Positions 697-21,844 of a DNA stretch of 38,586 nt are shown one piece after another. The stretch is taken from assembly GCA_964476305.1 (NCBI GenBank), contig CAYZAI010000002.1, positions 1 through 38,586 of the forward strand, in the 5' to 3' direction. Within the stretch, counting starts at the first letter, position 1; each line of letters opens with the position of its first letter. This stretch comes from an uncultured Myxococcales bacterium. GTDB lineage: Bacteria; Myxococcota_A; Polyangia; JAAYKL01. The notes under the pieces were generated by a model. The model ran no database searches, had not been told where the DNA came from, and saw nothing but the letters and a program-made list of their open reading frames with translations. The position numbers and the translations under genes were made by a program.

Positions 697-2451
<1,755 letters not shown>

Positions 2452-2522
2452 GTGAAAATCGTGGCTCACCATTCGCGACGGCTGTGGCGCGAGGCGTGAA
2501 GCCAGGTGACCGCGCGGCGGGC

Positions 2523-4814
2523 TCAGCCCGCGCGGCGCTGGATCGATTCGATGGTGCAGGTCGTGTCGGACATCACCTCGGCGGCGTTGGCCTCGTCGGT
2601 GTCGATGTGCATCTCGAGCGTCCAGCCCGGGTGCACCCGCACCAGCACGTCGCCGAAGATCAGCGAGCGCTCGCCGGCCAGTTGCACCCGCACGAGATCC
2701 CTGTCGCGGATGCCGTAGGTCAGCGCGTGCTCGGGCGCCATGTGTATGTGGCGCAGGGCGCAGATCACGCCCTGGTCGAGCCGCACCTCGCCGGCGGTGC
2801 CGCGAAGCGTGAGGCCCGGGCTGCCGTCCAGATCGCCGGAGGCGCGGATCGGCGCGTCGATCCCCAGCTTGAACTCCTCGGTCCGCGAGATCTCGACCTG
2901 GGTCTCTGGGCGCACCGGGCCCAGCACCCGGACCCGATCCACCCGCCCCTTGGGCCCGACCAGGTCCACGGTCTCCTCGGCGGCGAACTGGCCCTTCTGC
3001 CTCAGCTCGTTGCGGGGAGTGAGGGTGCGCCCCGGGCCGAAGAGCGCCTCGACGTGCGCCTGGGAGAGGTGCACGTGGTGCGCCGAGACCGCCACCGGGA
3101 TCGGCCTGTCGCGCCGGGCGCGCAGCACGTCGGTCACGCCCGAGCGCTTCAGGGCGAGGCGGGTCTCCGCGGCGATGGCGCCCTCCTCGTCCGTGGGCAC
3201 GACCAGCACCGCCACCTTCGAGCCGTCGGTCGAGATGCAAAGCGGCTCCGCGCCCCGGGGACGCTCCCGGTTCCTGGCGGGATCGAGCTCCACGCCCAGG
3301 AACCCGAGCCCCTGGCAGATGCGCGAGCGGATGCCGGAGGCGTTCTCGCCGATGCCGCCGGTGAACACGATGGCGTCGAGGCCACCCATGGCCGCGGCGT
3401 AGGCACCGAGATACTTGCGCACCCGGTAGCAGAAGACCTGGATCGCCAGGAGCGCCCCGGGGTGGCCCGCATCGGCCGCCGACTCGAGCTCCCGCATGTC
3501 ACTGGAGAGGCCGGACAGGCCGAGCAGGCCCGAGCGCCTGTTGAGCAGTTCGTCCATCTCGCCATGGCCCATGCCGCCGCCGAGCAGGTGCAGCAGCAGG
3601 CCCGGGTCGATATCTCCGCAGCGGGTGCCCATGGCCAGCCCCTCCAGGGGTGTCAGGCCCATCGAGGTGTCTACCGAGCGGCCGTGATCGACGGCGGTCA
3701 CGGACGAGCCGTTGCCCAGGTGGCAGGTCACCAGCTCGAGGGAGCCGGCCGGGCGGCCCAGGAATCGGCAGGCCGTCTCGGCGACGTACTTGTGGCTGGT
3801 TCCATGGAAACCGAAGCGCCGCAGCATCCGCTGGTCCGCGAAGTCCCGGGGCAGAGCATACCGCCAGGCGTGTTCGGGCATCGTCATGTGGAACGCCGTG
3901 TCGAACACGCCGACCTGGGGTACCCCCGGCGGCAGGAGGCGGCGGCAGAGCTCGATGCCCAGCAGGTTGATCGGGTTGTGCAGCGGCGCGAGCACCGAGA
4001 CCCGCCGCATCTCCCCGATCACGTCGTCGTCGATCAGCGTGGCCTCGGTGAAGCGTGTGCCTCCGTGCACGGTGCGGTGGCCCACCGCGGCGAGCTGCTC
4101 GAGTCGCTCGACGGCCCCGTGTTCCGGGCTGACCAAGAGGTCGAACACCGCTCGCAGGCCCGCCTCGTGGTCGTCAAACGCCTGGGTCCGCTCCACCTCG
4201 CCGGCGGGCCCCCTGTGGCGGATCCGCGAACCCGGAAGGCCGATCTTCTCGACCAGGCCCCCGGCCCGCCGCTGCTCGCCGACGAACAGCGCGTACTTGA
4301 TCGACGAACTGCCCAGGTTCAGCACGAGCACAGGCTGTTCGGCCGCCCCCCCGTTCCCTTCCTCCGGGAGCACCGTGCGCCGCGCCTCGTCGAGGGCGGC
4401 CCGCTCGCCGGGATCGTTGCCCCTTCGGGCCAGTCGCTCGGCCAGCAGCCGCGCCAGGGACCTCGCCGCCTGGGGCCGTCGGCCGATCTCCGCCGTCAGG
4501 GCGTCGTGGGGCACGTGCACCACGCGGCCGGGGCCGGCCGCGGTGAGCTCGGCGATGGCCGGCTCGCCGGTGAGCAGGCTCATCTCGCCCAGCACCTCCC
4601 CCGGCGCGATCTCCGCCCGCGCCCCGCCAGGGAGGGTCACGACCAGCCGGCCGCTCGCCACCACGCCCAGCGAATCGAGGCGCTCGCCGACGCGAACCAC
4701 CACCTGGCCCGTGCTGTAGTCCGTCACGCGCGCCGCGGACGCCAGGCGGTCGATAGCCTCGTCGTCGAAGTCGGCCAGCGCCTTCACCTCGCGCAGCAGT
4801 GCCTTGACGTTCAT
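2523..4814 (-). CDS. ackA: tri-domain fusion: cyclic-nucleotide-binding-like domain + acetate kinase + PduL-type phosphate acyltransferase
   Basis: ATG at 4814 with GGAGG 8 nt upstream. Residues 1-125 are CNB-like (GEVLGEMSLLTGEPAIAELTA). Residues 161-560 carry acetate kinase motifs VLNLGSSSIKYALF, HRTVHGG, APLHNP, FDTAFH, FHGTSH, CHLGNGSS, FTGGIGEN and PTDEE. Residues 575-763 carry the duplicated PduL motif SAHHVHLS and ALRHIHMA. The listed 1261-aa ORF extends further upstream as an antisense shadow of the next gene. Confidence 0.85.
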   Translation of the reverse strand: MNVKALLREVKALADFDDEAIDRLASAARVTDYSTGQVVVRVGERLDSLGVVASGRLVVTLPGGARAEIAPGEVLGEMSLLTGEPAIAELTAAGPGRVVHVPHDALTAEIGRRPQAARSLARLLAERLARRGNDPGERAALDEARRTVLPEEGNGGAAEQPVLVLNLGSSSIKYALFVGEQRRAGGLVEKIGLPGSRIRHRGPAGEVERTQAFDDHEAGLRAVFDLLVSPEHGAVERLEQLAAVGHRTVHGGTRFTEATLIDDDVIGEMRRVSVLAPLHNPINLLGIELCRRLLPPGVPQVGVFDTAFHMTMPEHAWRYALPRDFADQRMLRRFGFHGTSHKYVAETACRFLGRPAGSLELVTCHLGNGSSVTAVDHGRSVDTSMGLTPLEGLAMGTRCGDIDPGLLLHLLGGGMGHGEMDELLNRRSGLLGLSGLSSDMRELESAADAGHPGALLAIQVFCYRVRKYLGAYAAAMGGLDAIVFTGGIGENASGIRSRICQGLGFLGVELDPARNRERPRGAEPLCISTDGSKVAVLVVPTDEEGAIAAETRLALKRSGVTDVLRARRDRPIPVAVSAHHVHLSQAHVEALFGPGRTLTPRNELRQKGQFAAEETVDLVGPKGRVDRVRVLGPVRPETQVEISRTEEFKLGIDAPIRASGDLDGSPGLTLRGTAGEVRLDQGVICALRHIHMAPEHALTYGIRDRDLVRVQLAGERSLIFGDVLVRVHPGWTLEMHIDTDEANAAEVMSDTTCTIESIQRRAG

Positions 4815-4902
4815 GCAGAAGACCTCCGGTTTCGCTTCTCCGGACCGATCTTTTTCACCTTCCCGCGGCCGGATGCAAGCCGGGAATGGCGGCCGCGTTC
4901 CC

Positions 4903-4931
4903 TTGCGCGAGTGGGACAACTCGTCTAGTAT
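4903..4931 (+). promoter_or_regulatory. sigma70-like promoter TTGCGC-N17-TAGTAT; the -10 ends 9 nt before ATG 4941, a possible leaderless transcript
   Basis: Hexamers read directly. There is no purine-rich SD between the -10 and the ATG (tccccggtcgATG). Confidence 0.35.
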
Positions 4932-4940
4932 CCCCGGTCG

Positions 4941-6314
4941 ATGAACGCCCCACCCAAGCTGCTCACGGCCCTTCTCGGCCTCGCGGTCGCCGGGTGCCTG
5001 CCCGACACCGGCGGCATCGATCCGCCGCTCGACCGGCTGATCTTCCCGGTGGGCCTCGCCATCACCGCGGACGACAGCCGCCTGCTGGCCGTCAATTCCA
5101 ACTTCGATCTCGAATACAATTCCGGGACGCTGACCGCCCTCGACATCAGCGACCTCGCCTCGGCCCTCACCGCCGACACGGCCGAGGTCAGTCCGGACGG
5201 CCGTTTCGTCTTCATCGATGACGGCGCGCTGATCATCGAGAGCGAGACGATCCGGGTCGGGGCCTTCGCCAGTGACCTCGGCCTTTCGCCCCGGGGCGAT
5301 CGGGCGATGATCCCGGTGCGCGGCGAGCGCGCGATCCTGCTGGTCGACGTGGGCGATCCCGCGACCGGTGACTTCCTGGACTGCGGCGAGGGTGACGACC
5401 GGCGCTGCGACGGTGCCCACCGGGTCGAGAGCAACGACCGCTTCACGCTGCCCATAGAGCCCTACGAGGTTGCCGCCCTCGATTACGTCGAGCCGTCGTC
5501 CGGCGAGCTCACCACGCTCGGCTTCGCCTCCCACCTGGCCGGGGGCGAGGTCTCGCTGTTCGTGGTGCAGGACGGCGCCGCCGGCAGCCAGAACGACGGC
5601 GAGCTGATCGGTGTGCTCAGCGGCGTGGTCCGCGAGGCCAGCGGCATCGCGGTCAACCCCGTGAGCAAGGAGATCTACGTCGCCGGGCGGTCCGAGGACG
5701 CCCGCGTGGCGGTGCTGTCGGTCCACACGGATTCGACCAACGGACAGTACTCCCACGAGCCCTTCTTCAGGAAGGTCAGCCACATCGATATCGGCGCCGA
5801 GATGTACGCCGGGACGAATGCCAGGGGCCTCGCCGTCACCGACGACGGATCCTACGCCTACCTGGCGACCCGAACGCCGGCGGCGCTCCTGGAGCTGGAC
5901 GCCGAGGCCCACGAGCTGACCGACATGACCACGGTCTGCACGGATCCCTCGATCGTCGAGCTGTTCCGGAGCGACGGAGACACGGCTGATCCGGCGGACG
6001 ACGTCACCTACGCCTTCGTGCTCTGCTTCCTGACCGGGCAGGTATTCATCGTCGATACCGAGGCGCTGATCGTCCGCGCCGTGCGCTCGGTGGGAAGCAG
6101 CCCCCACGCAATCGCGTTCGATCGCACGCGCAGACGCGCCTTCGTCTCCAATTTCCGCGAATCGACAATCAGCGTGATCGAGATCGAGCCTCCGCTGTTC
6201 GACCTGCTGCGCTACCGGCCCGGACCGGGGGAGTGGCTGTACGACGAGGACGATCCCGAGCAGAGCTACATCGTCAAGCTCGGCAAGCCGCGCTTGCCCA
6301 AGGGGCACACCTGA
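4941..6314 (+). CDS. lipoprotein with YVTN/YncE-like beta-propeller repeats
   Basis: Signal peptide plus lipobox LAVAGC. Repeated blade-like segments: LAITADDSRLLAVNSN, GIAVNPVSKEIYVAG, GLAVTDDGSYAYLAT and PHAIAFDRTRRRAFVSNFRESTISVIEI. Confidence 0.75.
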   Translation: MNAPPKLLTALLGLAVAGCLPDTGGIDPPLDRLIFPVGLAITADDSRLLAVNSNFDLEYNSGTLTALDISDLASALTADTAEVSPDGRFVFIDDGALIIESETIRVGAFASDLGLSPRGDRAMIPVRGERAILLVDVGDPATGDFLDCGEGDDRRCDGAHRVESNDRFTLPIEPYEVAALDYVEPSSGELTTLGFASHLAGGEVSLFVVQDGAAGSQNDGELIGVLSGVVREASGIAVNPVSKEIYVAGRSEDARVAVLSVHTDSTNGQYSHEPFFRKVSHIDIGAEMYAGTNARGLAVTDDGSYAYLATRTPAALLELDAEAHELTDMTTVCTDPSIVELFRSDGDTADPADDVTYAFVLCFLTGQVFIVDTEALIVRAVRSVGSSPHAIAFDRTRRRAFVSNFRESTISVIEIEPPLFDLLRYRPGPGEWLYDEDDPEQSYIVKLGKPRLPKGHT

Positions 6315-17821: not shown

Positions 17822-19216
17822 TCAGAAGATCTTGCCCGGGTTCATGAGCCCCGTGGGGTCGAAGACTCTTTTCAATTCGCGCAACAGGGCGATGTTGTCC
17901 GGGCCCAGCTCCCGCGGCAGCCAGGCGCGCTTGGCCAGGCCCACACCGTGCTCGCCCGTGATGGTGCCCTGGAGCGAGAGCACGAGGGCGAACAGGTCGT
18001 CGAGGGCCGGGCCCGGGTCGAAACCGCCGTCTTCCCACAGCAGGTTGACGTGGTAGTTGCCGTCCCCCGCGTGGCCGTAGGAGGCGATGGTGATCCCGAG
18101 GCGCTCGCCGATGACCCGCAGGCCCTCCAGCAGCTCGGCGGCTCGGGATCGTGGCACACACACGTCCTCGGCGATCTTGAAGCCATGCGCCTGCTTGATG
18201 GCGTCGGACAGGCCGCGTCGGGCCGCCCACAGACGGTCGCGTTCGCCACCGTGGCGCGCCATCAGCACCTCCACCGCGCCCGCGGCCTCGGCCGCGTCGG
18301 CGAGGCGCAGGGACTCGGTCTCGACGAGCTCGGGCGAAGCGCCGTCCACCTCGGCCAGGACCAGGGCGCCGGTGTCCTCGGGCACCGCGCCCGCGCCGGA
18401 GCGGCGAAGGGTCTCGACCAGGACGCCGTCCATGAACTCCATCACCCGGGGCACGAGCCCGGCCGCGACGATCCTGCCGACGGCGCGGCCAGCGGCCACC
18501 TCGTCGGCGAAGCGGATGAGCAGCGTGGCCAGGGCCGGGGGCTTGCGCAGGAGGCGCAGGGTGAGCTCCGTGAACACGCCCAGGGTGCCCTCGCTGCCCA
18601 CCAGCAGGGCGGTGACGTCGTAGCCGGCCACGCCCTTGACCGTGCGCCGCCCGGTGCGCAAGGTGGCGCCGCCCATCAGCGCGGTCTCGAGGCCGAGCAC
18701 GTACTCGCGGGTCACGCCGTACTTGAACGCCCGTGGGCCGCCGGCGTTGTGCGCCGCGTTGCCTCCCAGGGTGCAGGTCTCGAGGCTGTTGGGATCGGGC
18801 GGGTAGAACAGGCCCTCGTCCTCAACGGCCTGCTGGAAGGCGCCGGTGATGCAGCCGGGCTCGGCCACGGCGAGCAGGTCGTCGCGGTTGATTTCGACGA
18901 TGCGGTCGAGCCGTGTGAGGTCGAGCACCACACCGCCGCGAGCCGGGATCGCGCCGCCGGACTTGCCCGTTCCGCCGCCCCGGGCCGTGACCGGTACGCC
19001 GTGGGCCGCGCAGAGCTCCAGTGCGGCGATCACGTCGTCGCGGTCGTGGGCGCGGACCGCCAGGTCGGGCAGGGCCGGCGCGCAGCACGATTCGTCGTGG
19101 CCGAGGCTCTCGAGCAGGTCGGGGTCATCGACCACCTTGTGCTCGCCGATGCGGCGGGCCAGGGGCCCGGCCACCTTCAGCGTCTTGTCGCGCGGGATGC
19201 GATCGCCCTCGCCCAT
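17822..19216 (-). CDS. glcD: FAD-linked oxidase, GlcD/D-lactate dehydrogenase family
   Basis: PCMH-type FAD-binding motifs RGGGTGKSGG and LGGNAAHNAGG. C-terminal GEHGVGLAKR motif and a NPGKIF end. Confidence 0.9.
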   Translation of the reverse strand: MGEGDRIPRDKTLKVAGPLARRIGEHKVVDDPDLLESLGHDESCCAPALPDLAVRAHDRDDVIAALELCAAHGVPVTARGGGTGKSGGAIPARGGVVLDLTRLDRIVEINRDDLLAVAEPGCITGAFQQAVEDEGLFYPPDPNSLETCTLGGNAAHNAGGPRAFKYGVTREYVLGLETALMGGATLRTGRRTVKGVAGYDVTALLVGSEGTLGVFTELTLRLLRKPPALATLLIRFADEVAAGRAVGRIVAAGLVPRVMEFMDGVLVETLRRSGAGAVPEDTGALVLAEVDGASPELVETESLRLADAAEAAGAVEVLMARHGGERDRLWAARRGLSDAIKQAHGFKIAEDVCVPRSRAAELLEGLRVIGERLGITIASYGHAGDGNYHVNLLWEDGGFDPGPALDDLFALVLSLQGTITGEHGVGLAKRAWLPRELGPDNIALLRELKRVFDPTGLMNPGKIF

Positions 19217-19281: not shown

Positions 19282-19884
19282 TCAGCCGGGAGCGGCGAGA
19301 TCCAGGGACGCGACGACCGCCTCGAACAGCTTTTCGTAGGACCGGCGCTCAAGGAAGCGCGCCCCGCACTGGAACACGATCGCCTCGTCGCCGTGGAGCA
19401 CCAGGTAGTTGACGAGCAGCCATTCGCCGCCTTGCTTCCGCCGGGCGTGAAAGGAGACGTGGAACACCCGGTTCGCCCCGAGCGCGAGGAAGCCCCGATC
19501 CAGCTCCTCCATCGATCCGCCCCAGTGGGAGATCATGTCGTCGCGGAAGCTCCGCGCGTAGCGGTCCGCCCGGTCCTCGAACGACCCGGCGGCTCGTGCC
19601 TGGACCCGGATCTGCAGCCCGGCGGTCTTGCCCCGCGAGATGTCGGCGCGGATCATGTGGCTCGTGCCCGAGTGATCGGCCAGCGTCCAGTCGGAGGGGT
19701 AGGAGAGGCGGTAGCCGTGCCGCGAGTCGGCGAACACCGCGTCGAGCCCCTCGACGGTATCGATCCCCGGCTCGATCGCCTCGACCCGCTCCGGCGCTTC
19801 CGTCCGCTCCCGCCCGCAGGCGAGGGCCAGCAGGGTCGCCGCCAGGGCGGCCGTCGCGTTCGGAAAAGCACGCCCTCGTCGCAT
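19282..19884 (-). CDS. lipoprotein, PsbP/DcrB-like fold suspected
   Basis: ATG 19884. Lipobox LLALAC-G. The YRLSYPSDWTL segment is typical of PsbP-like domains. The longer listed ORF (to 20229) is a Pro/Ser/Ala-rich extension with no signal peptide. Confidence 0.65.
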   Translation of the reverse strand: MRRGRAFPNATAALAATLLALACGRERTEAPERVEAIEPGIDTVEGLDAVFADSRHGYRLSYPSDWTLADHSGTSHMIRADISRGKTAGLQIRVQARAAGSFEDRADRYARSFRDDMISHWGGSMEELDRGFLALGANRVFHVSFHARRKQGGEWLLVNYLVLHGDEAIVFQCGARFLERRSYEKLFEAVVASLDLAAPG

Positions 19885-19932
19885 GGCGTCGGAGGTAGCA
19901 CACGGCTCGTGCCCGGACAACCGCTCGCGGAT

Positions 19933-19961
19933 GGAACCGACGGCGGGTTTCGGGATATACT
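19933..19961 (+). promoter_or_regulatory. possible promoter with -10 TATACT ending 8 nt before ATG 19970 (leaderless candidate)
   Basis: TATACT at 19956-19961. Weak -35 GGAACC. There is no SD before the ATG (ggccgcccATG). Confidence 0.25.
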
Positions 19962-19969
19962 GGCCGCCC

Positions 19970-20695
19970 ATGGGACCAAGCGCCACGGCGGTTGCCACGA
20001 TGCTCGCGGGCCTGCTCGCGGCCGGCCTCGTGTTCGGCCAGGAGGACGACGCGGACGCCGGTGTTCCCGACGACGGGCCCCCGGCGGCGACGCCGGTCGA
20101 GGGCCGCGACCTGGCCCAGGAGGCTGCAGCCCTCGAGCTCGCGGGCTTCCGCAACCTGGCCGTGGTGCACATCACCTCGGAGCCGCCCGGAGCCGAGGTC
20201 GCCCTGGGCGCGGAGAACCGCTGCTTCACACCCTGCCGCCTGACGCTTCCTCCGGGTCAGTACCACCTCGTCTTCGAGCACCCGGACCGCGACCCTGTGG
20301 AAGTCGTGGCCGACGTCGCCACCCACGAGTCGGTGCGCGTGCACGGCGTGCTCGGCAGCCGGACCCCCCCCGAGATCATCGTCCCGCTCTACTTCGTCGG
20401 AGCGATCTTCTCGGCCGGCGGGATCTCCTCCCTGATCCTCAACCGGGACGACGGGCCGCGGTCCCTCGAGGAGAGCGAAGGCGACGCGGACTCGAGGCGT
20501 TTTCATCGCAACCTGGGCGCGGTGTCGGTGGCGGTGGGCGTGCCCCTTCTGGTGCTGGCGACCTACCTGCTGGCGGCCGGTCGCCCGGGCTCCGTGTCCG
20601 TCTCCGCCGGGCCGGCCGGCCCCGGGCTCGGGATCGTGCCCGCGGTGGACGAGGATGGTGACGTCGTCGGCGCCGGGCTCGGCGCATCGTTCTGA
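19970..20695 (+). CDS. PEGA domain-containing membrane protein
   Basis: Signal peptide AVATMLAGLLAAGLVFG. PEGA motif VVHITSEPPGAEVAL...CRLTLPPGQYHLVFE. C-terminal TM segments. Confidence 0.7.
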   Translation: MGPSATAVATMLAGLLAAGLVFGQEDDADAGVPDDGPPAATPVEGRDLAQEAAALELAGFRNLAVVHITSEPPGAEVALGAENRCFTPCRLTLPPGQYHLVFEHPDRDPVEVVADVATHESVRVHGVLGSRTPPEIIVPLYFVGAIFSAGGISSLILNRDDGPRSLEESEGDADSRRFHRNLGAVSVAVGVPLLVLATYLLAAGRPGSVSVSAGPAGPGLGIVPAVDEDGDVVGAGLGASF

Positions 20696-20731: not shown

Positions 20732-21844
20732 ATGAGCGGGAGCGAAGCGGAAGGGCGCGGCATCCTGGTGATCAACCCGGGCGGGACGTCCACCAAGATC
20801 GCCCTCTTCGACGGCGACCGCGAGCTGTTCTCGCTGGACGTGCGCCACGATCCCGCGGCCCTCGCCGCTTGTGGCCGGGTGATCGACCAGCTCGATTTCC
20901 GGCTCGGCACGGTCCGTGACGCGCTGGCCGGGCGTGGGGCTTCCGTGACCGGGCTGGCCGCGGTGGCGGGTCGGGGAGGGGCCCTGGCGCCCGTGCCGAG
21001 TGGGACGTTCCTCGTGGACGGGGCGATGCTCGAAGCGATCCGCGCGGGCCGCGTCCTGGTCGAACACCCGAGCCTGCTCGGGGCGCCGATGGCGGACCGA
21101 GTCGCCCGGGAGGCTGGCTGCCCGGCGTTCGTCGTGGACCCGGTCTGCGTCGACGAGCTCCTGCCCGAGGCCCGGCTGAGCGGCCTGCCCGCGCTGCCGC
21201 GCCGGGCCTTGTCGCACGCGCTCAGCGTCAAGGCCGCGGCCCGCGAGGTGGCGGGACGGATGGGGCGCCCGCTCGAGGAGCTGGACCTGATCGTGCTGCA
21301 CCTGGGCTCGGGCTTCACCGTGGCCGCCCAGCGCCGCGGGAGGCAGGTCGACCACAACGACGCCACGGCCTGCGGCCCCATGGCACCCACCCGTGCCGGC
21401 GAGCTGCCGAGCCTGGACTTCGCCAGGCTGTGCTTCTCGGGGCAGATCACCTTCGAGCAGGTCGAGCGGATGCTGGTGGGCGAGGGCGGCTGGCGCGCCC
21501 ACCTCGGCACGGACGACGTGCGCGAGATCTACCGCCGCGTCGATGCCGGGGACACCGCCGCGAGGCTCGTGCTCGACGCCACGCTGCACCAGCTCGCCAA
21601 GGAAGTGGGCGGGCTTCTGGCCGTTCTCTCGGGCCGGGTGGACGCCATCGTCATCACCGGAGGCGTGGCGCGTTCCGAGCGCTTCGTGGCCGAGCTGGAA
21701 GCGCGCCTGGCCTGGATCGGCGCGCCGCTCCACGTGCTGCCCGGCGAGAACGAGATGGCGGCCCTGGCCCGGGGCGCGAGGCGAGTCCTCGACGGCGAGA
21801 TCGAGGCGCTGTCCGTGGGCCCGTTCCTCGAGGCGGGAGGTTGA
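20732..21844 (+). CDS. buk: butyrate kinase
   Basis: ASKHA-fold motifs ILVINPGGTSTKIALF, HLGSGFTV and ITGGVARS, plus a PGENEMAALA C-terminus. GAGGAGG SD. Confidence 0.9.
   Translation: MSGSEAEGRGILVINPGGTSTKIALFDGDRELFSLDVRHDPAALAACGRVIDQLDFRLGTVRDALAGRGASVTGLAAVAGRGGALAPVPSGTFLVDGAMLEAIRAGRVLVEHPSLLGAPMADRVAREAGCPAFVVDPVCVDELLPEARLSGLPALPRRALSHALSVKAAAREVAGRMGRPLEELDLIVLHLGSGFTVAAQRRGRQVDHNDATACGPMAPTRAGELPSLDFARLCFSGQITFEQVERMLVGEGGWRAHLGTDDVREIYRRVDAGDTAARLVLDATLHQLAKEVGGLLAVLSGRVDAIVITGGVARSERFVAELEARLAWIGAPLHVLPGENEMAALARGARRVLDGEIEALSVGPFLEAGG

Follow-up and report, generated by a model that had tools for sequence, protein, structure and literature searches.

The stretch of DNA analysed here, referred to as the window, comprises 38,586 nucleotides from an uncultured Myxococcales bacterium (GenBank assembly GCA_964476305.1, contig CAYZAI010000002.1, positions 1 to 38,586) and carries a gene for a three-domain enzyme, in which a cyclic nucleotide-binding (CNB)-like sensor, an acetate kinase (AckA) and a PduL phosphotransacylase are joined in one frame. 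The gene runs from 4814 to 2523 on the minus strand, with an ATG start codon at 4814-4812, an uninterrupted frame of 763 codons and a TGA stop codon at 2525-2523. A Shine-Dalgarno sequence, GGAGG, is located 8 nt 5' of the ATG (4823..4827, minus strand), and the start position agrees with the aligned starts of homologues. The gene stands alone, flanked by one convergent and one divergent gene. An earlier note on this DNA had placed the coding sequence at 2523-4814 without giving a strand, and had described a single chain made up of a CNB-like domain, an entire acetate kinase and a PduL domain with both repeats. Translation confirms these coordinates exactly, Pfam and NCBIfam matches bear out the description, and the motifs quoted at the time (SAHHVHLS, ALRHIHMA and GEMSLLTGEPAIAE) are all found in the translated sequence. 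The stop-free translation of the whole coding sequence (2523..4814, minus strand, 763 aa plus stop), the profile matches and 118 full-length homologues of like layout show that the three-domain enzyme is encoded by a real gene standing by itself.

All parts of the protein are encoded on the minus strand. The whole-protein AlphaFold2 model has a predicted local distance difference test (pLDDT) score of 85.5 and a predicted template modelling score (pTM) of 0.74. The sensor domain (residues 1-131, 4422..4814) is tethered to AckA by a linker (residues 132-160, 4335..4421), which consists of a helix at 135-147 and a disordered stretch at 149-158; pLDDT drops below 50 in the latter, and the linker is the least conserved segment. 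Between AckA and PduL, a connector (residues 553-571, 3102..3158) continues the last AckA helix (543-566), which leads almost straight into the first PduL strand, modelled from residue 572.

The acetate kinase domain (residues 161-552, 3159..4334), of the ASKHA superfamily, matches Pfam Acetate_kinase PF00871 at 162-548 with 459 bits (cut-off 22 bits, E 1e-137, profile positions 2-391 of 392) and NCBIfam ackA (TIGR00016) with 447 bits (cut-off 293 bits). It is 48-49% identical to the acetate kinases of Methanosarcina thermophila (1g99/1tuy) and Thermotoga maritima (2iir), and a Foldseek comparison of its model with 1g99 gave a target-normalised template modelling score (TMt) of 0.91 (E 2e-45). 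In the alignment to M. thermophila AckA all catalytic residues are kept, namely N166, R247, H279, D305, H337, N368, R398 and E543, opposite N7, R91, H123, D148, H180, N211, R241 and E384 of that enzyme. The acetate-pocket residues V249, L278, F336 and P389 are likewise kept, opposite V93, L122, F179 and P232. While the M. thermophila and T. maritima enzymes are stand-alone proteins of ~400 aa whose partner is a separate Pta, the window AckA is fused to its phosphotransacylase.

The PduL domain with both of its repeats (residues 572-760, 2535..3101) matches Pfam PTAC/PduL PF06130 at 573-747 (250 bits, E 1e-74, profile positions 1-175 of 176) and the NCBIfam PduL model with 255 bits. Its six His/Glu metal ligands (H580, H582, E641, H689, H691 and H736) do not vary among 30 homologues. 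Among the microcompartment phosphotransacylases of Rhodopseudomonas palustris (5cuo) and Salmonella, the former is 50% identical to the domain, with a TMt of 0.95, a root mean square deviation of 1.3 Å and a like His/Glu dimetal site. Microcompartment PduL carries an N-terminal encapsulation peptide, whereas the N-terminus of the window PduL is fused to AckA and shell genes are missing: the bacterial microcompartment shell protein family PF00936 had no match in the 96.5% complete genome. Functionally, the domain is nearer to the non-compartment PduL1 and PduL2 of Moorella thermoacetica, where PduL replaces Pta outside microcompartments (PMC10823632). PduL has also been proposed to act in place of Pta in phytoplasmas.

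From the intact active sites and the modelled folds, the catalytic roles of AckA and PduL can be assigned with near certainty. The PduL domain would convert acetyl-CoA and inorganic phosphate to acetyl-phosphate and CoA, and the AckA domain would transfer the phosphoryl group of acetyl-phosphate to ADP, giving acetate and ATP, with the pair of reactions being reversible. Fusion would keep the making and the use of acetyl-phosphate stoichiometric and close together. The tri-domain enzyme may, as the earlier note suggested, combine channelling with allosteric gating.

A homologue search was performed against 5.8 billion protein clusters, and the best 120 matches were analysed. AckA and PduL are present in all 120; 118 are full-length (at least 700 aa) and also carry the CNB domain in the same frame, the remaining two being shorter fragments. 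These at least 118 full-length tri-domain homologues share 49-88% identity with the window protein, measure about 755-802 aa and come from several phyla, the named origins including Polyangia, Myxococcota, 'Deltaproteobacteria', Longimicrobiales and Planctomycetota metagenome-assembled genomes (MAGs). The search reveals a widespread layout whose members are labelled in their sources plainly as 'acetate kinase' or 'acetate/propionate family kinase'. Clustering at 50% yields about 13 full-length tri-domain clusters in addition to fragments. A search of species-representative genomes adds Syntrophaceae, Margulisiibacteriota and Chthoniobacterales, with at least three tri-domain loci among the matches listed, the majority of which are plain AckA genes. 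The family spans Myxococcota, Planctomycetota, Gemmatimonadota, Verrucomicrobiota, Syntrophaceae and Margulisbacteria MAGs. The tri-domain design is common in uncultured bacteria and represents a catalogued but uncharacterised variant of the Ack-PduL fusion.

The fusion of the two catalytic domains is more common still. In a sample of 301 genomes from the same phylum, 84 encode AckA-PduL without the sensor, five (the source genome included) encode the tri-domain form, and among the other genomes that had a match plain AckA predominates. The two-domain protein is the commonest form of acetate kinase in this sample and occurs in all 26 sampled genomes of one family, so the fusion is the local norm and not an oddity. 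The earlier statement that the two enzymes are normally separate proteins was therefore too strong, also because Erbilgin et al. (2016, PLoS Biol 14:e1002399, PMC4784909) had already described Ack-PduL multidomain proteins in a short passage, proposing that PduL replaces Pta in them and that acetyl-phosphate is channelled. Like the window protein, these fusions combine AckA and a two-repeat PduL without encapsulation peptide, in this order, in one polypeptide. Their paper mentions no N-terminal CNB domain and assayed no Ack-PduL member, whereas the window protein has a conserved CNB domain without the cassette Arg. No paper on a CNB-bearing AckA-PduL form or on a CNB-regulated acetate kinase was found in full-text searches of the literature.

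In a tree of the AckA region, plain AckAs and most two-domain proteins are separate from the tri-domain set, and the two-domain type that is common in myxobacteria does not cluster with this set, although the tree is poorly resolved and its backbone lacks resolution. Two proteins of the two-domain kind and two of CNB-AckA layout fall within the tri-domain set, likely as a result of later domain losses or truncated gene calls. A single origin of the CNB fusion followed by such losses was considered, and is neither shown nor excluded by this tree. P0196 (571 aa) and P0201 (570 aa), which sit among the tri-domain proteins in this tree, consist of an Arg-less CNB domain and AckA and end right after AckA without PduL, reflecting either losses of PduL or truncated gene calls. 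In several divergent tri-domain representatives of the 50% clusters (P0174, P0175, P0178, P0179, P0180, P0187, P0197 and P0204), the N-terminal phosphate-binding motif of AckA, N-x-G-S-S-S-x-K, is degenerate, as in ILAITCRQDDVRY and VLALRARRDWLRY. Judged by this motif, some branches may be pseudo-kinases or have a changed function.

The N-terminal domain was suggested earlier to be CNB-like, and this fold assignment is upheld by profile, sequence and structure comparisons. Pfam cNMP_binding PF00027 matches residues 32-109 with 50.1 bits, against a gathering threshold of 27.5 bits, and a sequence search of the PDB returned solved CRP-family proteins (E 2e-9). The domain, modelled with a pLDDT of about 90 (86 for a domain-only model), comprises N-terminal helices, an 8-stranded beta roll, a cassette helix (77-82) and helices alpha-B (103-112) and alpha-C (114-131). 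In Foldseek the domain-only model reaches query-normalised template modelling scores (TMq) of 0.65-0.75 to the CNB domains of PKA-R, Mycobacterium tuberculosis CRP, HCN, MlotiK1 and SLC9C1.

Within this fold, the phosphate-binding cassette GEVLGEMSLLTGEPAIAELTA (residues 72-92, 4539..4601) is degenerate. In canonical cassettes, a Gly-Glu pair contacts the 2'-OH of the ribose, and an Arg (R209 in PKA, R82 in CRP) binds the cyclic phosphate. Pairwise alignment places P-A-I-A-E of the window protein opposite P-R-S-A-D and P-R-T-S-S of solved CRP-family structures, which confirms the replacement of the Arg by Ala and of Ser/Thr by Ile that had been read from the sequence before. The substitutions are Ala86 for the canonical Arg, Ile87 for Ser/Thr and Glu89 for Thr. 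Those at positions 86 and 89 extend across the family: across the 118 full-length homologues, position 86 is Thr in 53, Ala in 45, Ser in four and Leu or others in the rest, and never Arg, while position 89, which follows the conserved Ala, is Asp, Glu or Asn in 108 in place of Thr or Ser. The divergent representatives of the 50% clusters (35-46% identity) lack the cassette Arg as well. The Gly-Glu pair is kept, with G76 found in 113 and E77 in 116 of the 118. The cassette has a mean column entropy of 1.18 bits, compared to 2.3-2.4 bits elsewhere in the domain; no other part of the sensor is as well conserved, which favours a functional pocket over decay.

The nearest CNB relatives outside the family belong to MscS-like channels and NTE/patatin proteins and read GEMSLLTGEPRSATV (sequence form FGEMSLLTGEPRSATV). 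They share with the tri-domain sensor a near-identical cassette framework, FGEMSLLTGEP-x-x-A, but retain R-S-A-T: the Arg is kept in 40 of 46 of these outgroup domains and the Thr after the Ala in 38 of 46, whereas the AckA-PduL family never has the Arg. The tri-domain sensor, a true CNB fold, derives from the usual GEMSLLTGEPRSATV type of bacteria, and the family differs from its ancestors exactly at the contacts to the phosphate of a cyclic nucleoside monophosphate (cNMP). The source genome encodes 17 CNB domains, nine of them with the cassette Arg; as both these nine and the closest outgroup keep it, the loss in the tri-domain family is specific and ancient. R127 on alpha-C was considered as a compensating Arg and rejected; it is kept in 115 of the 118 homologues but also in all 46 outgroup domains. 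A linker motif, D-P-Y-G-[LF]-x-L, is conserved just before AckA (aligned residues ~145-155) in distant tri-domain subfamilies and absent from the window protein and its clade. It might act in docking or as an intrinsic ligand.

On balance, and with moderate confidence, the N-terminal domain is read as an orphan sensor for a small molecule, mounted on an active AckA-PduL enzyme and making no canonical use of cyclic AMP (cAMP) or cyclic GMP (cGMP). The complete lack of the Arg in 118 homologues lends weight to the earlier suggestion that a cyclic nucleotide is unlikely to be its ligand. Such a sensor would modulate the activity or the assembly of the AckA dimer through the long alpha-C helix and the flexible linker. 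Several observations weigh against this assignment. No biochemical data on any member of the tri-domain family were found in full-text searches of the literature. The source genome contains two class III cyclase-like genes, so that cNMP signalling exists in the cell. The neighbourhoods of the window gene and of three distant tri-domain homologues have no common neighbour gene that would hint at a ligand. Position 79, which corresponds to Ala202 of PKA and to the Glu of the nucleoside-binding mode in trypanosomes, is Ser in 87 and Ala in 29 of the 118 homologues and Glu in none. Finally, no aromatic capping residue is conserved in alpha-B and alpha-C (103-131) of these homologues, and the ligand therefore need not be a purine. 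A bolder and rather less likely proposal is that the strongly conserved Arg-less cassette marks a class of ligand not seen before with bacterial CNB domains, namely a non-cyclic metabolite that would directly gate substrate-level phosphorylation at the acetyl-CoA/acetate node. Possible examples are nucleosides or nucleotides, CoA derivatives and signals related to acyl-phosphates. If so, the enzyme would be the first AckA-phosphotransacylase machine under allosteric control by a sensor, and would parallel in bacteria the discovery of the trypanosome 'orphan CNB'.

A known case of altered ligand preference is the regulatory subunit PKAR of trypanosomatids, whose CNB domains bind purine nucleosides and not cAMP (Bachmaier 2019, PMC6440977; Ober 2024, PMC10959531; structures 6flo and 6h4g). 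The main determinant of nucleoside binding in Trypanosoma brucei PKAR (TbPKAR) is a Glu, E311/E435, at the position of PKA Ala202 (PMC10959531). The cAMP-independent Trypanosoma PKAR structure 6h4g is among the Foldseek matches of the sensor model. In both systems the Gly-Glu pair is kept and the cassette Arg replaced, by T318/N442 in TbPKAR and by Thr or Ala in the tri-domain family. The site of E311/E435, however, is Ser or Ala in the tri-domain proteins, which also lack a conserved capping Tyr; the only comparable Tyr is that of the DPY linker motif in the distant subfamilies. The outputs differ too, being a kinase holoenzyme in the trypanosome and a bacterial enzyme here. With the key Glu absent, membership in the trypanosome-type nucleoside pocket was rejected, and PKAR is retained as a precedent only. 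It shows that a CNB domain without the Arg may have switched to another class of ligand and need not have lost its function.

Mycobacterial Pat (Rv0998/MSMEG_5458; 4ava, 4orf), which was returned as both a sequence match and a structural match of the sensor, resembles the window protein in carrying an N-terminal CNB domain on an enzyme of acetate/acetyl-CoA metabolism. Pat is a cAMP-gated protein acetyltransferase that controls acetyl-CoA synthetase; it has a canonical cassette Arg, R95, and binds cAMP. Its output domain is a GNAT acetyltransferase, while that of the window protein is AckA-PduL.

A rather unlikely alternative is that the CNB-like domain binds no ligand at all and acts as a dimerisation, scaffolding or autoinhibitory module, with the cassette kept for structural or intramolecular contacts. 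KCNH channels offer a comparison, as their CNB-homology domains are ligand-free. The family-wide loss of the Arg and the missing purine-capping aromatic residue fit this explanation, as do the long alpha-C helix, which is also seen in dimeric CRP-family proteins, and the DPYG[LF] motif, which could fill the pocket intrinsically in the distant subfamilies. The window protein and its clade, however, do without this motif, and it is the cassette, including the ribose-contacting Gly-Glu pair, that is the most conserved part of the domain. Moreover, the two-domain AckA-PduL relatives manage without a sensor, and assembly of the catalytic core consequently does not need one.

It is unlikely, to a greater degree, that the sensor still recognises cAMP, cGMP or another cyclic (di)nucleotide in a non-canonical manner, by which a second messenger would control substrate-level phosphorylation. 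Mutation of the cassette Arg in PKA, CRP and HCN cuts cNMP affinity by orders of magnitude, and this phosphate-neutralising residue is absent from all 118 homologues, 108 of which have an acidic or amide residue for the neighbouring Thr; its retention in the closest outgroup and in nine domains of the same genome also speaks against such recognition. The overall fold and the Gly-Glu pair of the cassette are nevertheless retained, and the two cyclase-like genes and 17 CNB domains would provide a cellular context for a cyclic nucleotide signal. The incompatibility of TbPKAR with cyclic nucleotides is furthermore described as 'not absolute' at high concentration (PMC10959531).

In many bacteria, acetyl-phosphate, acetate overflow and ATP yield are set by the Pta-AckA node, whose control is usually ascribed to transcription and mass action. 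A widespread AckA-PduL family with a dedicated sensor would mean direct post-translational control of the acetate node. The tri-domain CNB is a clear natural example of a cassette that stays conserved although the Arg for the cyclic phosphate is gone. This allows a test, on a soluble bacterial enzyme whose read-out is easy, of what else CNB domains can sense. With regard to annotation, tri-domain proteins should not be called simply 'acetate kinase'.

Arg-less cassettes also occur in other proteins. A database search with the CNB domain alone revealed no other architecture with the whole family signature, but isolated cassettes of this kind (GEPASADV, GEPASATV) were observed in a sigma-54 activator (P0146) and in NTE/patatin proteins (P0151, P0155 and P0156). 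In the source genome, the second domain of two tandem-CNB proteins (C76/L095 and C146/L102) reads PATATV, and a large protein on contig C11 (L104) reads PTSARV. Orphan CNB domains are found outside the AckA-PduL family as well.

The source genome is a 4.66-Mb MAG of 505 contigs with a completeness of 96.5%, and the source named for the closest homologue of the tri-domain protein points to Polyangia. One AckA and one PduL were found, both in the tri-domain gene, while neither Pta nor AcsA scored above the curated cut-off in the genome profile search; the tri-domain enzyme is therefore probably the main acetyl-CoA/acetate/ATP node of this organism. The genome also has five hits for 2-oxoacid:ferredoxin oxidoreductases.

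The window contains a second acyl kinase gene, a genuine butyrate kinase at 20732-21844 on the plus strand (TIGR02707, 392 bits). It is preceded by a gene for a PEGA-domain protein, its other neighbour is an open reading frame (ORF) without family matches, and an FAD-linked oxidase is encoded nearby; the window genes in this region lie at 17822-19216 (minus strand), 19883-20695 (plus strand) and 20732-21844 (plus strand). No acyl-CoA enzyme adjoins the butyrate kinase. The earlier note had taken the lack of an adjacent phosphotransbutyrylase to suggest that the PduL domain could also serve this kinase; the domain would then be a general acyl-CoA phosphotransacylase that supplies butyryl-phosphate as well, and PduL enzymes do take C2-C3 acyl-CoAs (PMC4784909). 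This appears distinctly improbable, and the idea is unnecessary, given that Ptb-like proteins are encoded on contigs C29 and C219 and a Pta-like-butyrate kinase fusion on contig C375. The AckA pocket residues are in addition those of the acetate-specific M. thermophila enzyme, and the joining of PduL to AckA speaks for a route dedicated to C2. The protein on contig C375 (L005:1441-3645, plus strand) is a 734-aa fusion that begins with a Pta-like domain (PTA_PTB) and ends with a butyrate kinase. It belongs to a conserved family of at least 120 database clusters with 40-87% identity, named just 'butyrate kinase', and represents a second, non-homologous fusion of like two-step logic.

That the tri-domain protein is an artefact of assembly or of a frameshift joining separate genes, which the earlier note had raised as a possible refutation, can be dismissed with near certainty: the sole caution is that high guanine-plus-cytosine (GC) content yields long spurious open frames, whereas 118 full-length homologues of 755-802 aa from independent assemblies have a like continuous layout, and the domains abut without gaps, with a confidently modelled helix as connector. 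ORF length by itself is unreliable evidence for a gene in this GC-rich window. The plus-strand frame over 2523-4814 is likewise open, as part of an open frame spanning 2448-4928, and on the minus strand an open frame of 1261 codons (2523-6308) reaches upstream of the ATG of the tri-domain gene. The plus-strand frame and the upstream extension on the minus strand are shadow ORFs typical of DNA with ~69% GC.

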